Origin: a virus
Taxonomy: Duplodnaviria > Heunggongvirae > Uroviricota > Caudoviricetes
Strand: one strand, 5' to 3'
Length of the DNA: 36,473 nucleotides
Virus record (IMG/VR): IMGVR_UViG_3300045988_146535
How positions within the stretch are numbered: the stretch's first letter is position 1; each line of letters opens with the position of its first letter. Below, piece by piece: positions 20,429 through 26,517 of the stretch. Position numbers and translations under genes: made by a program. The notes under the pieces are model-generated. The model was given only the letters and a program-made list of their open reading frames with translations, was not told the origin of the DNA and made no database searches.

Positions 20429-20557
20429 GATAGGCTCCCCTCGTAAATGAGGTGATTCACAAAATGAAACAAAAAAAGCACTGGTAGTACCAGCATCCTA
20501 AATTACAGATTCCATAACATGCTCAATGCTGCTAATGGCAAGAAAGGATGTTTTTAA

Positions 20558-20770
20558 ATGACAAGCGATAATCTGGACTCCAAGCCCACAATTGAAGATG
20601 TTGATTTCAAGCATTTGATCTGCGTCGCAGGAGGAATCATCGAGGATCTAAAAGGCCCATTTATATTCAAGGCTCCAGAAAATATTAGGCGATTACTTAA
20701 TCATAAGGGAGTGAATGAAATAAGTAATCTCTCTCAAAAATTTAATGCAGATTCTCCATCTTGCTATTAG
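20558..20770 (+). CDS. Hypothetical small protein (AT-rich island)
   Basis: 70 aa; AGGA-like ribosome-binding site upstream; convergent with the 197-aa membrane protein gene; stem-loop at 20776-20803 after the stop. Confidence 0.4.
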   Translation: MTSDNLDSKPTIEDVDFKHLICVAGGIIEDLKGPFIFKAPENIRRLLNHKGVNEISNLSQKFNADSPSCY

Positions 20771-20846
20771 AGTTCAGCAGCAGGCACTCAGTGAATGCCT
20801 GCTGTAACGACTACTCCAATAATAATGGATGCTCTATGGATACATA

Positions 20847-21440
20847 CTAAAATATGGATGTTAAATAATTGCTAAGTCTTTTTGCATTCTTACAGAATGC
20901 CAAAGCATCTTCCTGAGTACATAAGAGCTTTCCTTGGGATATAGGCTTAATAGACTCTCCTGTTTTTTCATAGAGCTTAACAATGTCACTAGAAATTTTG
21001 TTTGCAGATTGGACATTTTTCAAGGCAGCGATACCTGAAGCCCGCCCTAAAGATGTCCCGTTGATCTCAATCCCCTTTTTAGATGCAAGCGTTATAGCGG
21101 TTAACTCCAATTCGCGCCAAGCTGAAAGTACAGCAACATTAGGCTGAGTACTAGCAAGACTCTCAAAAATATTGAAATTCTCAATGAGTTGAGTCGGCAG
21201 GACAGGATTTGTTCCAGGTAAATTTTTAATAACCTCTATACTTTTAGATTCTATTTCAAACATTTCTTTTTTAAATTTAATCTCATAGTCACCTAGCTTA
21301 ACTGTATTAAGACGACCTAAAACCATTATTATTTCTTTTTTTAAAGTAAAAAAGACAATCAAACAAGCAAGAACAATAAATAAAACATTGCCTTCTTTAA
21401 GAAGCATCTCTATCCAGTAAAAAAAAGTATAGTCCGTCAT
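20847..21440 (-). CDS. Membrane-anchored hypothetical protein (moron downstream of the lysis cassette)
   Basis: 197 aa; N-terminal transmembrane segment LFIVLACLIVFFTL; visibly AT-rich. Confidence 0.6.
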   Translation of the reverse strand: MTDYTFFYWIEMLLKEGNVLFIVLACLIVFFTLKKEIIMVLGRLNTVKLGDYEIKFKKEMFEIESKSIEVIKNLPGTNPVLPTQLIENFNIFESLASTQPNVAVLSAWRELELTAITLASKKGIEINGTSLGRASGIAALKNVQSANKISSDIVKLYEKTGESIKPISQGKLLCTQEDALAFCKNAKRLSNYLTSIF

Positions 21441-21634
21441 TTTCAGTTCTCAAATAGAAATAGTTCTCTCAGTATACGTATATTGAACTCTGCTATCACT
21501 TAGTTTATACAACGTTATGCTGGCCACACGCTCGTAGTTGACGTGCATGTGGCTACTCGCTATTTTAGGTATTTGGGACATCTTCATTAATGCTGAACAG
21601 GCACTTCTTGCTGCGGTCTTTCCACTTTACTGCT

Positions 21635-21892
21635 TCATGGCTCACTCTTCTCTGCTTCAATTTTACGAATATCAGCCTTATCCCTATTACAGGCAGCCAG
21701 CACTGACAGCAGGCTCACGTTTAAATCCAGACTATCTTTGTAAGTCAGCGGATCAGGAATAGCTGGCTGTGGGGTTTCAGCGGTCAGGTTCGCCGGTAGT
21801 GGTACCGCCGGAACTGGCACGTAAATTGTCCGCGTACCGGCGCAGCCGCTCAGTTGCACGAGCAGGAACAAGACGGGAAGCGCAATCATCAT
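21635..21892 (-). CDS. Rz1-like outer-membrane spanin lipoprotein (overlapping Rz in another frame)
   Basis: Signal peptide with lipobox LVQLSGCAG and Pro-rich body; start taken at the internal MMIALPV of ORF 21635-21958. Confidence 0.55.
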   Translation of the reverse strand: MMIALPVLFLLVQLSGCAGTRTIYVPVPAVPLPANLTAETPQPAIPDPLTYKDSLDLNVSLLSVLAACNRDKADIRKIEAEKSEP

Positions 21893-22959: not shown

Positions 22960-23178
22960 TTGTAGTTATCTCTCACCTCGCCGATACAGGAGGTGCAAAT
23001 TGAGGGAGTACCACGAACCGCAAATCAGAAGCGGAAACGTAAAAGAAGCCGAGCCAATGGATAAGTACTAGATAGAACAAGCCCAACGAATACCAAGGCC
23101 CAGAAACGACAAAACCCGCTCAATGGCGGGTTTAAGCTGTGTGGCGACGTAACCACTCTTAACACGATACAATACTTT

Positions 23179-23207
23179 TTGCGTACGCGTTAGCATTTTA
23201 GTAATAT
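23179..23207 (+). promoter_or_regulatory. Candidate sigma-70 promoter for the accessory operon
   Basis: TTGCGT (23179-23184), 17-bp spacer, TAATAT (23202-23207), about 30 bp upstream of the ATG at 23241. Confidence 0.3.
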
Positions 23208-23240
23208 TCTGAAGTACGTTTATCTATTGAATCTATACAA

Positions 23241-24350
23241 ATGAAGAAAATCGAAAAACTGTTCACTGAAGTAATACGGAAGTTGCGCCATAAGAAATTT
23301 ATGCGCTCGATAGCTAGTAAAAGAAGCACAACAGAAAGAAAGCTAAAACGTAATGGAAGTTTAAAAAAAATCGCTCCAGAGAAAATACTTGCTCCAACCA
23401 TACTTGATATTTACAAGGCGGAATATCATGAGAATGTGGTTAATTTTATAGAAAAAATAGAAAACAAAGCAAAGACAGGAAATAAAAAGATATATATATG
23501 TTTTAGAAATACAATTCATATATCGGCTGCTGCTGGCTTATTTCTTCTTGCAAAACTAGAGACGTTAAAAAGCAATCATAGGGACTTAAAATATATCGTA
23601 GCCAAACCGCCAATCAAAACTTCATCAAAAGGAGAACAGCACGTTGTTGATTCTGTTTTGAACAGAATCGGAATCTATGCAGCATTAGGTGTTAAATCAA
23701 GAGAAATGAGAGAAACTCCGTCTGTAAAATGTTGGGAGGTAATTCGTGGCGAACTAGTAGATTCGGAAATTGCAGGAAACTTATTAGAAACAATCACAGA
23801 AAAAATGGGTACCGATTATACAGATTTATATCGTCCCTTGATAGAAGCCATGTCTAATTCAGTAGAACATGCATATCGAGACGATTTATATGACTCAAAT
23901 AAAAATAACAATAAAAATAAATGGTGGTGCTTTGCTGCAATTATGAACAACAAGTCAATTATGAACAACAAGTTAATATTACTAATTTGTGACCTCGGTG
24001 TAGGTATACCTAAAACGTTAAAACTTACTCAAGGTGAAAAGGTTCTTGCAAAGCTAACCGAGTTCCTTGGTAAGCCATTAGTCCTTGATTCAGAACATAT
24101 AAAAGCCTCATTGCAGGTTAAACGAACCCGAACAAAGCTTGGATACAGAGGGAAAGGAGGAACTGATTTACAATCTATCATAGAAAACTTTGAAAATGCA
24201 CAATTACGAATTATATCCAACAAAGGAAATTACAGATATACTCATCGTAAGAAAGCAAGACCAGAGTTAATGTGGGATGCCAAACATTCCATCAACGGTA
24301 CTATAGTTGAATGGAGCGTACCGCTACCAAATGAAGGAGACTCTCAATGA
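23241..24350 (+). CDS. GHKL/HATPase_c-type ATPase (RsbW-like serine-kinase fold) with an uncharacterised N-terminal region
   Basis: 369 aa; N-box-like EAMSNSVEHAY, G1-like ICDLGVGIP (DxGxG) and G2-like GYRGKGGTDL; visibly AT-rich; opposite strand to the flanking late genes. Confidence 0.6.
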   Translation: MKKIEKLFTEVIRKLRHKKFMRSIASKRSTTERKLKRNGSLKKIAPEKILAPTILDIYKAEYHENVVNFIEKIENKAKTGNKKIYICFRNTIHISAAAGLFLLAKLETLKSNHRDLKYIVAKPPIKTSSKGEQHVVDSVLNRIGIYAALGVKSREMRETPSVKCWEVIRGELVDSEIAGNLLETITEKMGTDYTDLYRPLIEAMSNSVEHAYRDDLYDSNKNNNKNKWWCFAAIMNNKSIMNNKLILLICDLGVGIPKTLKLTQGEKVLAKLTEFLGKPLVLDSEHIKASLQVKRTRTKLGYRGKGGTDLQSIIENFENAQLRIISNKGNYRYTHRKKARPELMWDAKHSINGTIVEWSVPLPNEGDSQ

Positions 24351-24664
24351 AAACCTTATTTATCAAGGACTTTTCAAGATTCCCGGGGCCTAGATACGAA
24401 AGGTTAGGTGAAAACAGTGGCGAAAAATTCCGCGATTTATTTTTGATACCAGCACTTAACGAAAATCCAGACTTAGTCATTGACTTTGATGGTGTTTTTG
24501 GCTATGGCTCATCTTTCCTTGAGGAGGCCTTTGGAGGTTTGGTGCGTAAAGGGATAGAGCGCGAAAAATTGGAGAAGCTTAAGAAGAATCTCAAAAGTAA
24601 AGATCAATACATTATTGAGGAAGTAATTTCATATATTGATGATGCTCTGCGAGATCTAAAATAA
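24347..24664 (+). CDS. STAS-like small protein (DUF4325-like, anti-sigma-antagonist fold)
   Basis: 105 aa; VIDFDGVFGYGSSFLEEAFGGL matches the DUF4325 core pattern as I recall it; start overlaps the stop of the upstream gene. Confidence 0.5.
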   Translation: MKTLFIKDFSRFPGPRYERLGENSGEKFRDLFLIPALNENPDLVIDFDGVFGYGSSFLEEAFGGLVRKGIEREKLEKLKKNLKSKDQYIIEEVISYIDDALRDLK

Positions 24665-25125
24665 TGGACACTGACGTTACTCAGAATTTATGGACAATGC
24701 CTGCAACGATTATAGCGATTGTTGGCATTTTTTTAACAATATTAGGCTGGATAGTTACAGCAATACTTACTCGCATTAACAATGCGAAGAATTTAAAAAA
24801 ACTAGAAATAAATAGACTTATTGATGAGTTATTTTATAAATTAGATTTTATTTATAGCGAAATGCTTGAATTGCTGCGAGACGATAAAAAAGACAAACAA
24901 GTCCTATATTACATTTTTACATCATCAGTAAGGCATGTTGAGTTTATTTGCGAGCGAATTGAACTATTAGACAACAAAAAAAACAAAGACAATGGATTAA
25001 TATCTGAATTAAGACAAGCATGTACTAACGATGCGAAATATGAAAAAGAAAAAATTGGAACAACATTACATGAAATCCAAAGCGCTAATGAAAAACTCAA
25101 AAACAAATATCTGAAATCATTTTAA
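24664..25125 (+). CDS. Membrane protein (one N-terminal transmembrane helix, charged coiled-coil-like C-terminal region)
   Basis: 153 aa; transmembrane segment ATIIAIVGIFLTILGWIVTAILT; ATGG overlap with the upstream stop. Confidence 0.55.
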   Translation: MDTDVTQNLWTMPATIIAIVGIFLTILGWIVTAILTRINNAKNLKKLEINRLIDELFYKLDFIYSEMLELLRDDKKDKQVLYYIFTSSVRHVEFICERIELLDNKKNKDNGLISELRQACTNDAKYEKEKIGTTLHEIQSANEKLKNKYLKSF

Positions 25126-25131
25126 TTAAAA

Positions 25132-25157
25132 AAGAACCGGCTAAGCCGCCGGTTCTT
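25132..25157. terminator. Bidirectional intrinsic terminator between the accessory operon and the Q-like gene
   Basis: AAAAAA-GAACCGGC-taagcc-GCCGGTTC-TTTTTT; A-run and T-run flank a GC-rich stem. Confidence 0.7.
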
Positions 25158-25159
25158 TT

Positions 25160-25519
25160 TTAATTTATTACACAAAGGCAGCCTTCAATAAATCCAATGG
25201 CCATTTGTAATTCTTTTCTAATTGTACCATCAGAATACTTCCTCTTTTTAGCAATAGCACGAAGTGAGATGCCAACAACAAAGTGAGCAATTATCAGCTC
25301 ATACTCTTCCGGCTTATATTTACGCAACCTAGCCACACAACTATCTATCATGATGCCTTCATCATCATCACACTGGAGACGTGACTTTTTACCGTGTGGT
25401 AAAAGTCCCTTGAAACCAGCCGCTATCGGCTGCCAGTCCACACCACTGTTATCTGCTGCCGCCCATGCTCCCCAGCGGTCCAAAACTTCATACATATCAC
25501 GCATCAACCTTCTCCACAA
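25160..25519 (-). CDS. Putative late-gene antiterminator (Q-like)
   Basis: 119 aa; position between the replication/accessory early genes and the lysis cassette; HTH-like LRKYKPEEYELIIAHFVVGISLRAIAKK. Confidence 0.45.
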   Translation of the reverse strand: MWRRLMRDMYEVLDRWGAWAAADNSGVDWQPIAAGFKGLLPHGKKSRLQCDDDEGIMIDSCVARLRKYKPEEYELIIAHFVVGISLRAIAKKRKYSDGTIRKELQMAIGFIEGCLCVIN

Positions 25520-25521
25520 AA

Positions 25522-26517
25522 TCAGGCCAGCACACCAATTGCCAACGCACGATCGATAAAACGAAATATCAGCTCCAGCTGGGAGCCATACATCTCTTCA
25601 AATGCCACGGTATCCGCATGCAGCTCGTCGTGATGCTTTCTGCACAAAGGCAACACAAAGAGGTCATGCGCTTTTGTACCCATTCCACCCTGGCCGTGAC
25701 CTATCAGGTGGTGGGGATCATCAGCAGGCTTTCCACAACATGCACACGGCTGTGTCTTAACCCAGCGCGTGTACTTTTCATTAACCCAGCGGCGACGTTT
25801 GGGGCGTAACATAAAAGACTCCGGCGACTCCGGATCCACTTTCAGCGTCAGCACCTTTTTCGCTTTATCCTGGATGATGCTGGTGGCAGGAACCGAAGGC
25901 ACAAAGTCACTTTCCCGGGTGACAGACGGCACAACAGGCTTCGGTAATCTCAGTGCCTTACGGGCTGCACTTTCCGGTAAGGCATCCGCCAGATCATTAC
26001 GAATCAGCCACCAGCACAGTTCCGGCATTGTCACAACGTGACTATCATCAAAACCGAGATCCCGACGCACAACAGACAACACCCAGCGGGCACAGTTATC
26101 CGTTGCCATTGATTCCAGCCGTTCCGTGAACTGATCGCGCAGCTGGTTATCGCAGTGCCAGCACAGACGGATTGCGCCCGGCGCGTGTCGCATTGTGGCC
26201 ATGTTCTCGCTGTGCCAGTCGGAATGAGGCCACTGACAGCCCTTTTCACGAAGTAACCAGCTTTCAAGACATTCCACGCCACCAGCACGACGGATCACTG
26301 CCTCATTGCGGAACACGGCCCGAACGGCAGGATCATCCGCCAGCGGTTGTGATGCCGCCGGAACGGCACCACTGGCGAAAGATGAATAACGTTCCGGCTC
26401 AGGCTCCAGCAGGACACGCCCCTGCATAAACAGGGGCATCAGCTCTGAACCTGGTCTGAACAATACGATCCCCATACGCGGGGCAATTTCAGGGGTCAGT
26501 AGTGCTCTCACGGTCAC
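25522..26517 (-). CDS. DUF968-like protein with C-terminal HNH-like Cys/His motif
   Basis: 331 aa; C-terminal CACCGKPADDPHHLIGHG...CRKHHDELH. Confidence 0.5.
   Translation of the reverse strand: MTVRALLTPEIAPRMGIVLFRPGSELMPLFMQGRVLLEPEPERYSSFASGAVPAASQPLADDPAVRAVFRNEAVIRRAGGVECLESWLLREKGCQWPHSDWHSENMATMRHAPGAIRLCWHCDNQLRDQFTERLESMATDNCARWVLSVVRRDLGFDDSHVVTMPELCWWLIRNDLADALPESAARKALRLPKPVVPSVTRESDFVPSVPATSIIQDKAKKVLTLKVDPESPESFMLRPKRRRWVNEKYTRWVKTQPCACCGKPADDPHHLIGHGQGGMGTKAHDLFVLPLCRKHHDELHADTVAFEEMYGSQLELIFRFIDRALAIGVLA

Follow-up and report, generated by a model that had tools for sequence, protein, structure and literature searches.

A predicted Q-dependent late regulatory cassette, separated from its antiterminator gene by an inserted cargo module, in an Escherichia coli prophage of the SfII/SfIV kind

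In phage lambda the late genes are governed by the Q/pR'/6S RNA/tR' system, in which a constitutive promoter makes a short terminated leader of 194 nt and Q-dependent read-through carries transcription into the lysis genes; lambda Q belongs to family PF03589 and its gene directly adjoins pR'. The Q protein of phage 21 (Q21), a member of family PF06530, binds a TGAGCA direct repeat at about -25 to -12, that is, between the -35 and -10 elements, where the lambda Q site also lies (PMC6606751), loads on sigma-paused RNA polymerase (RNAP) and forms a nozzle on the RNA exit channel (PMC6606751, 10.1101/651190). In the 933W-like prophage Sp5 of E. coli O157 Sakai, differential RNA sequencing (dRNA-seq) has located the start of the pR' transcript and Term-seq its 3' end, at a distance of 258 nt (Sy et al.; PMC7547250). 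Here, we describe the late control region of IMG/VR record IMGVR_UViG_3300045988_146535, the whole 36 473-nt stretch of which is referred to below as the window. Nearly the whole of an E. coli prophage of the SfII/SfIV kind is present, from integrase, repressor and early genes to Q, the lysis genes and the terminase and tail genes, with the phage genes on the minus strand. The minus-strand segment 23193-23102, just upstream of the holin gene, is very probably a Q-dependent late regulatory cassette that has been split from Q by an inserted cargo module. It is an ordinary member of the known Q/pR'/tR' kind, related to the 933W/Sp5 and DLP12 modules. The elements of the late region are the following.

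23193-23102, minus strand: conserved cassette, about 90 bp.
23193-23164, minus strand: predicted pR' core promoter, with a -35-like CTAACG (23193-23188), an 18-nt spacer and the -10 TATCGT (23169-23164).
23188-23181, minus strand: palindrome GCGTACGC (8 bp), followed by A5 (23180-23176); candidate Q-binding element, at about -31 to -24 of pR'.
23164-23143, minus strand: conserved start region, TGTTAAG-A(+1, 23157)-GTGGTTACGTCGC; predicted late start and possible pause region, aligned to Sp5 without gaps.
23133-23102, minus strand: tR'-type intrinsic terminator from terminator scan and fold, made of the hairpin 23133-23112 and the tail UUUUGUCGUUU.
22959-22633, minus strand: holin, first late gene (PF05106, E=6e-25; annotated as holin in SfII and SfIV).
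22629-22153, minus strand: endolysin, after the holin (annotated as lysin in SfII and SfIV).

Sp5 is the relative in which the transcript ends are known. It shares with the window the Q family and the element order (palindrome, A-tract, TAnnnT, xxTAAG-A-GTGGTTAC), and the two align without gaps from the -10 across the start region up to the first hairpin. In the Sp5 locus (L134) the U-run of the second terminator ends at 1103, so that the start falls on 846, which is the A in GATAAG-A-GTGG, 7 nt past TATCAT. The coordinate shift implied between genome versions is 142, which fits stx2A at 1,267,107 in version 2 of the Sakai genome and at 1,266,965 in version 1. The alignment places the mapped start base on A 23157 of the window, 198 nt from the holin ATG. 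On the other hand, the Q stop of Sp5 lies inside the promoter, with no insert, its palindrome is ACGATCGT and its -35, TTTACG, is good, whereas a 2-kb antisense insert, the palindrome GCGTACGC and a weak -35 belong to the window. Moreover, the Sp5 leader goes on to a second terminator at +258 and is processed to the 74-nt StxS small RNA; past the first hairpin the window is unrelated to Sp5 and has the first hairpin only, so that a leader of the StxS type is absent.

The order of genes is that of DLP12 quuD(ybcQ)-nmpC-essD, as seen in phage 434B, and of PA-2 lc: a short PF06530 Q, backward-facing cargo with a terminator abutting the 3' end of Q, the cassette and the holin. In K-12, the nmpC terminator has been mapped antisense to the 3' end of ybcQ (PMC7815308). 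DLP12 differs from the window by its porin cargo, which has its own promoter about 400 nt from the cassette, by its Q (47% identical to that of the window), by its palindrome ACGTACGT and by its canonical promoter TTTACG-16-TATGCT. Rueggeberg and coworkers are said to have reported, in 2013, that the DLP12 lysis cassette is under the control of Q. DLP12 also has a sigma-E promoter farther upstream (PMC7918800). The '+1' used for the promoter of the DLP12 lysis cassette (Rueggeberg 2015), placed with the primers of PMC7918800, falls at about 3176 in the 434B locus (L009), at this sigma-E promoter and not at the cassette. The position is close to the start of nmpC, some 350 nt before the cassette, and transcripts from there would still have to pass the cassette terminator.

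With phage 21 the window shares the Pfam family of Q, and with lambda the regulatory logic, its Q family, lack of a palindrome, leader length and Q/pR' contiguity being otherwise. The similarity of the window Q to the Q21 structures 6P18 and 6JNX, the only solved structures that match, is marginal (E=5e-4), and the long loop within the helix-turn-helix of Q21 is missing from the window Q. The Q21-type TGAGCA direct repeat is absent from the late strand of 23240-23134.

The cassette is composed, in order, of the palindrome, an A5 run, about 11 variable nucleotides ending in TA-N3, the motif TGTTAAGAGTGGTTAC, about 15 nt, the hairpin and a T-run. An alignment of the window with SfII, SfIV and three E. 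coli prophages of differing cargo shows homology that sets in sharply at CTAACGCG (about 23193) and extends past the hairpin as far as the holin. Copies of the cassette are present in 380 phage records and at more than 200 IMG/VR loci, and a megablast of the 101-nt cassette against E. coli genomes matched at least 74 of them (a lower bound set by the 28-nt word size, and not a prevalence). Its carriers include SfII, SfIV, four E. coli prophages, Stx1a phages, vB_EcoS-569R4, mEp460, Stx2a_1447, 434B/DLP12 and PA-2. What it precedes varies: stx1A in the Stx1a phages, small open reading frames (ORFs) and a methylase gene in vB_EcoS-569R4 and mEp460, a methylase gene, tRNA genes and stx2 in Stx2a_1447, and a different holin type in 434B/DLP12 and PA-2. 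Past the T-run, the sequences diverge according to what lies downstream. The cassette is thus kept before differing late genes: as one unit it follows the type of Q, and does not follow the late genes. This conservation is the stronger argument against chance.

IMG/VR was scanned twice. The first scan, with the motif TGTTAAGAGTGGTTAC, gave 120 loci; with the window and the loci fetched earlier, 104 have a same-strand upstream Q of the PF06530 family, and the Q proteins of these 104 loci were clustered at 78% identity. The second, with the variant motif GATAAGAGTGGTTAC, recovered mostly insert-less loci. In the insert-less layout (12 of the 104 loci) the motif TGTTAAGAGTGGTTAC begins 3-44 nt after the Q stop and the promoter region overlies the end of the Q ORF, which at one locus (L020) reaches to 3 nt before the motif; most loci of the second scan have Q-to-cassette gaps of -2 to 37 nt. 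The comparison with relatives lacking the insert, suggested in the initial annotation of the window, thus finds the same cassette abutting or overlapping the Q stop codon. Such relatives show the textbook adjacency, with Q immediately upstream of pR' (gaps of -2 to 44 nt) and the promoter overlapping the 3' end of Q. In the window this adjacency is absent: from the Q stop to the start of the cassette there are 1,967 bp, taken up by the cargo module, in agreement with the displacement by an inserted operon that had been proposed. SfII, an inducible phage, has the same layout. The arrangement had been thought unusual, yet the order Q, cargo, pR' and late genes is the prevailing one in this family, being found at 92 of the 104 loci; long-sequenced examples are DLP12 nmpC and PA-2 lc. 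Adjacency of Q and pR' is a habit of layout and no mechanistic requirement. Q can diffuse, binds both DNA and RNAP and is loaded at its site within pR' (PMC6606751, 10.1101/651190), and the distance of its gene from pR' therefore has no mechanistic meaning. The cargo operon leaves the Q switch undisturbed since the DNA target of the switch moved with the late genes.

Part of the evidence for the promoter is the -10 element. At a fixed offset, its second base is A in 53 of 53 unique upstream variants and TAnnnT is kept in 92% of them, while the three middle bases vary. The final T, invariant as well, is the first base of the search motif TGTTAAGAGTGGTTAC and was fixed by the sampling; lying inside the motif, it carries no weight, and the TA dinucleotide is the independent evidence. 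The promoter of the DLP12/933W clade is canonical, TTTACG-16-TATGCT or TATCAT, and that of Sp5 (TTTACG-16-TATCAT) was scored as promoter-like by the scan. Two other readings of the promoter were rejected. A -10 at TATTGT (23174-23169), in a lambda-like register with TAAGAG/AAGAGT as transcribed pause, is absent from DLP12 and the other cassette types; its offset reaches only 49%, and the mapped Sp5 start fits the TATCGT register instead. The second, TTACTA (23204-23199) as the -35 of pR', would need a spacing of about 24 nt, and on the other strand it is the predicted -10 of the cargo promoter.

Downstream of the start, the intrinsic terminator lies between pR' and the late genes. A hairpin upstream of the holin had already been noticed, at 23118-23141; the hairpin is real, but its arms, AAACCCGC-N6-GCGGGTTT, lie at 23112-23133, 6-8 nt away. 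The proposal of a late promoter together with a terminator in this interval finds its counterpart in the conserved cassette. The terminator is of the late (minus) strand only, AAACCCGCCATTGAGCGGGTTT followed by TGTCGTTTCT, and the predicted terminated RNA is about 50 nt long. Folds were compared with 200 shuffles each: the late-strand hairpin has -12.8 kcal/mol and z = -3.0, one shuffle of the 200 folding equally well. Of the 56 unique leader variants, nearly all show a hairpin with a T-run after it, 25-55 nt past +1, some with unrelated stems, and unrelated stems at the same position argue for selection on terminator function; the 5' part of the leader was fixed by the search pattern, and the alternative hairpins are not alignable column by column. 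The first hairpin is shared by Sp5, where seven T come after it (L134 869-890; about +24 to +52). No Rfam family, leader RNA included, was matched over the whole window.

Two candidates for a pause signal are present, AAGAGT (-3 to +3) and a segment resembling the lambda pause. The latter, GGTTACGTCGC at 23153-23143 (minus strand), agrees with lambda pR' GGTTAATTCGC (L133 779-789) at 9 of 11 positions, in a register to +1 that is 4 nt shorter. Most cassettes read AAGAGT-GGTTACTTCGC, and GGTTACTTCGC agrees with the lambda segment at 10 of 11 positions. The lambda record reads AACGAT-GGGTTAATTCGC, and the lambda pause, at +16/+17, falls within this segment. As a pause element, the lambda-like segment is only a lead.

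How the gap between Q and the cassette arose can be read from the Q side, where the following features are found.

25504-25160, minus strand: late antiterminator Q gene, 114 aa from ATG (PF06530 Phage_antitermQ, E=1.2e-46).
25124-25165, both strands: two-way intrinsic terminator with GC core 25132-25157, 18-bp perfect stem including the A/U arms.
23195-25180, plus strand: inserted cargo module, about 1.99 kb, GC about 0.33; junctions from alignments with relatives carrying other cargo.
23179-23207, plus strand: predicted cargo promoter, read from the sequence, TTGCGT (23179-23184), 17 nt, TAATAT (23202-23207), diverging from pR'.
23241-24350, plus strand: cargo gene 1, 369 aa, no match in Pfam.
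24347-24664, plus strand: cargo gene 2, 105 aa, DUF4325 STAS-like (E=2.8e-15).
24664-25125, plus strand: cargo gene 3, 153 aa, one transmembrane segment by eye.

The phage thus encodes a Q of a recognised family, 46% identical over 113 aa to that of Sp5. Its stop codon, TAA at 25162-25160, is 2 nt off the GC core of a perfect hairpin with U-runs on both strands, so that Q does end directly in a bidirectional terminator, as the initial annotation had it. This hairpin folds with -24.7 kcal/mol on the plus strand and -26.1 kcal/mol on the minus strand (z = -7.2 and -7.9), none of the 200 shuffles being equal. The hairpin reaches into the stop of the last cargo gene (25123-25125) as well, and the transcripts of the cargo operon (plus strand) and of Q (minus strand) are both predicted to end at it. 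The DNA homology of the window Q with its relatives breaks off after ...GGATTTATTGAAGG, at about 25181; the last six Q codons (CLCVIN) and the two-way terminator hence belong to the cargo module, and Q ends directly in the terminator because the 3' end of Q, at the Q|pR' junction, is where the module went in. Insert-less relatives have a longer Q, of 130-143 aa, and insert-bearing Q proteins are cut after ...GFIEGxL or ...LEMD. Most insert-bearing relatives show a hairpin-like inverted repeat within a few nucleotides of the Q stop, as judged by eye without folding. The short Q tail differs with each cargo type, and the ...DIRLEMD... tail of other clades is missing from all window-type Q proteins.

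The cargo forms a three-gene plus-strand operon (23241-25125) with a GC content of about 0.33, against about 0.50 in the flanks. By sequence it looks like a module of the partner-switching type; GHKL-ATPase-like motifs (EAMSNSVEHA, DLGVGIP, GYRGKGG) can be seen by eye in the 369-aa protein. All three proteins fall in PHROGs families of unknown function, one of which, phrog_5816, fuses the STAS part to a longer protein. PADLOC gave no credible match on the cargo, only a marginal one (Cas6b, E=0.0026), and NCBIfam and PDB sequence searches on it found nothing. The window cargo is unique within the viral sample; copies about 99% identical occur in six complete E. coli genomes, and E. coli PSUO2 has the prophage itself at 99.4% identity.

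Across the 92 insert-bearing loci the cargo is antisense in 83, with one to three ORFs, and sense in 9. It comprises 48 protein families in at least 29 gene architectures, and window-type Q alone accounts for 14 architectures. The Q|pR' junction is a hypervariable cargo hotspot. Like morons and the P2/P4 hotspots (PMC9122126), it is a fixed position receiving many unrelated low-GC modules with their own terminators, but it is placed inside the last Q codons and against the candidate Q operator, and its cargo is mostly antisense. As for a moron, the window cargo has its own terminator and a low GC content, and a promoter, TTGCGT-17-TAATAT, is predicted for it. The -35 of this predicted promoter overlaps the palindrome and the A-tract, and the layout TTGCGT-17-TAnnnT is kept in 13 of 17 unique window-type cassettes with differing antisense cargo. 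The predicted cargo start and the predicted pR' start are about 57 bp apart, and the two promoters should therefore compete.

Each cassette has a symmetric element of 8-10 bp directly upstream of the A5 run, and the type of this element goes with the Q cluster.

Window-type Q cluster, 27 loci: GCGTACGC.
SfIV-type Q cluster, 29 loci: GCGGTCCGC, one locus with GCGTTCCGC.
DLP12/933W-type Q cluster, 41 loci: ACGTACGT, ACGATCGT or ACAATCGT.
Q cluster 3, 5 loci: TGTTATAACA.
Q of L020, 1 locus: TGGAATTCCA.
Q of L098, 1 locus: GCGGGCCGC.

The element fits the Q cluster in 103 of the 104 loci, the sole exception, in the SfIV cluster, being one base off (GCGTTCCGC). The second scan added the palindrome types TCGTTACGA, TGTCATGACA and TGTAATTACA. 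This match makes the palindrome a candidate Q-binding element; in the window it lies near the place of the Q21 and lambda sites. We consider it unlikely, although this is the alternative that survives best, that the cassette is indeed pR'/tR' but that the palindrome serves as the operator of another factor, or as the -35 or spacer of overlapping divergent promoters, its match with the Q clade being mere linkage. Q and palindrome abut in the ancestral layout, and cargo shared between Q clusters, which would have separated matching from linkage through independent recombination, was sought and not found among the 92 insert-bearing loci, so that the matching could partly reflect linkage. The palindrome also overlaps the -35 predicted for the cargo promoter, and Q21 binds two TGAGCA direct repeats and no palindrome (PMC6606751); a palindromic site would imply symmetric binding by Q. 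Against this, the match holds, apart from the single one-base variant, across at least 29 cargo architectures and across shared types of downstream late genes. Furthermore, the clades differ in the element, yet it is always symmetric, of 8-10 bp and at the same position, roughly where the lambda and phage 21 sites lie, and the helix-turn-helix region of Q differs between the same clades.

Taken with Q as the ligand of the palindrome, the cassette would work as follows. The sigma-70 promoter pR' would initiate on A 23157 or no more than 2 nt from it. In the absence of Q, the RNA would end at 23133-23102, after about 50 nt, leaving the holin, the endolysin and the downstream late genes silent. 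Q made 2 kb upstream would diffuse to the cassette and most likely bind the palindrome GCGTACGC just upstream of the -10; it would then load on RNAP paused in the conserved initial transcribed region, allowing read-through of the terminator into the late genes. The gap itself stems from insertion of the module 23195-25180 into the last Q codons, exactly at the Q|pR' junction. The module brought the two-way terminator that now ends both Q and the cargo operon, and for the divergent promoter, with its -35 over the palindrome, it probably brought the -10 too.

Several observations, besides the possible linkage mentioned above, weigh against such a Q-dependent cassette in the window. The -35 CTAACG is weak (three of six consensus matches, with an 18-nt spacer; that of the SfIV clade is poorer still), and the consensus scan of 23240-23134 called no promoter for the window pR'. 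The mapped start comes from Sp5, a cassette of palindrome type ACGATCGT and not of the window type, and the IMG/VR loci are not independent of one another. No convincing -10-like pause element was found, with no clear TAnnnT downstream of +1 in the window. The U-tract of the late terminator is interrupted (UUUUGUCGUUU), and the terminator scan found no second late-strand terminator, of the kind that Sp5 has, before the window holin. In Sp5 the mapped pR' RNA of 258 nt ends at the second hairpin (about +230 to +258), so that the first hairpin, homologous to that of the window, must be at least partly read through; either it terminates weakly or its product of about 50 nt was missed in the published libraries. 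Finally, the 3'-end tables of K-12 show no plus-strand end at the DLP12 cassette, although RNAs of about 50 nt may have been lost (PMC7815308).

The late genes could also be reached by read-through, antisense across the cargo, from the early rightward operon or from a promoter near Q, with the hairpin 23133-23112 acting as an attenuator. Early transcripts of lambdoid phages are able to pass terminators once N-type factors have modified them, and the failure of the scan to call a canonical promoter in 23240-23134 would also fit. We nevertheless regard this as very improbable, in view of the very strong late-strand terminator directly after Q, the conserved cassette, promoter-like and with a mapped start in its Sp5 homologue, that immediately precedes the hairpin, and the presence of the same cassette immediately after Q in insert-less relatives; the cargo, moreover, varies widely in length and content and has no conserved antisense feature. 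Of the two possibilities left open by the initial annotation, antisense late transcription through the operon is thus unnecessary, and the other, a promoter beside the holin with Q acting at a distance, is very probably the right one. Scarcely credible, lastly, is a true late promoter in 23100-22960 with the cassette making a small terminated RNA unrelated to late control: this 150-nt interval is kept among phages with this holin type, and a leader RNA outside the Rfam families could have a small-RNA role, but the scan finds no promoter-like site there, the interval changes with the downstream gene (holin types, methylase, stx) while the cassette stays and tracks the Q clade, and in Sp5 the same start drives stx and the late transcript (PMC7547250).

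The displaced Q-dependent cassette bears on Shiga toxin phages. In the Stx1a phages and Stx2a_1447 (L006 6532-6623; L011 3501-3592) Q is of the window type, the cargo is antisense and the cassette precedes stx, and another Stx2 phage (L032) has an SfIV-type Q with no insert. A Stx2a prophage described in 2023, apparently of the former layout, with a divergent Q (47.6% identical to Q933) and two coding sequences between Q and stx2a, was reported to have 'lacked the late promoter PR'' (PMC10562709), and prophages without the reference pR' site have been noted elsewhere (PMC6266700). Since Stx phages with a displaced cassette exist, such statements may, judging from the descriptions alone, refer to displaced or divergent cassettes. 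If pR' is displaced and not missing in the prophage of PMC10562709, predictions of toxin inducibility from such sequences would change.

Three by-products of the comparison are of moderate interest: a candidate code of operators in a large family of Q proteins, the hypervariable site of cargo insertion and a control region that may be shared. We may wonder whether the Q|pR' junction of 933W/DLP12-type phages is a dedicated cargo dock, in which modules replace the last Q codons, bring a two-way terminator and set a -10 17 nt from the TTGCGT inside a clade-specific, palindromic Q operator. Q would then have two roles, turning on the late genes by antitermination and, through palindrome binding and pR' activity, shutting off the divergent cargo promoter (of defence genes, for example). 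In the clades without a usable pR' -35 (window and SfIV types), Q, with its sigma-region-4-like features, might also be an activator. We put this forward as a speculation that is considerably more likely to fail than to hold. The site could in any case be mined for defence or virulence genes, a defence role of the window cargo being conjecture.

Two neighbouring regions may be mentioned. The gene just upstream of Q (25522-26517, minus strand) is DUF968/HNH-like (PF06147, E=1.8e-80); at least one record, mEp460_4F5, labels this gene 'antitermination protein Q', apparently a mis-annotation by neighbourhood. A second low-GC island (0.28-0.41) spans 20450-21650, between the lysis genes and the HNH/terminase genes. 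Its ORF 20847-21440 (minus strand, 197 aa) falls in phrog_30030, of unknown function, with no match in Pfam, and is probably another cargo gene.

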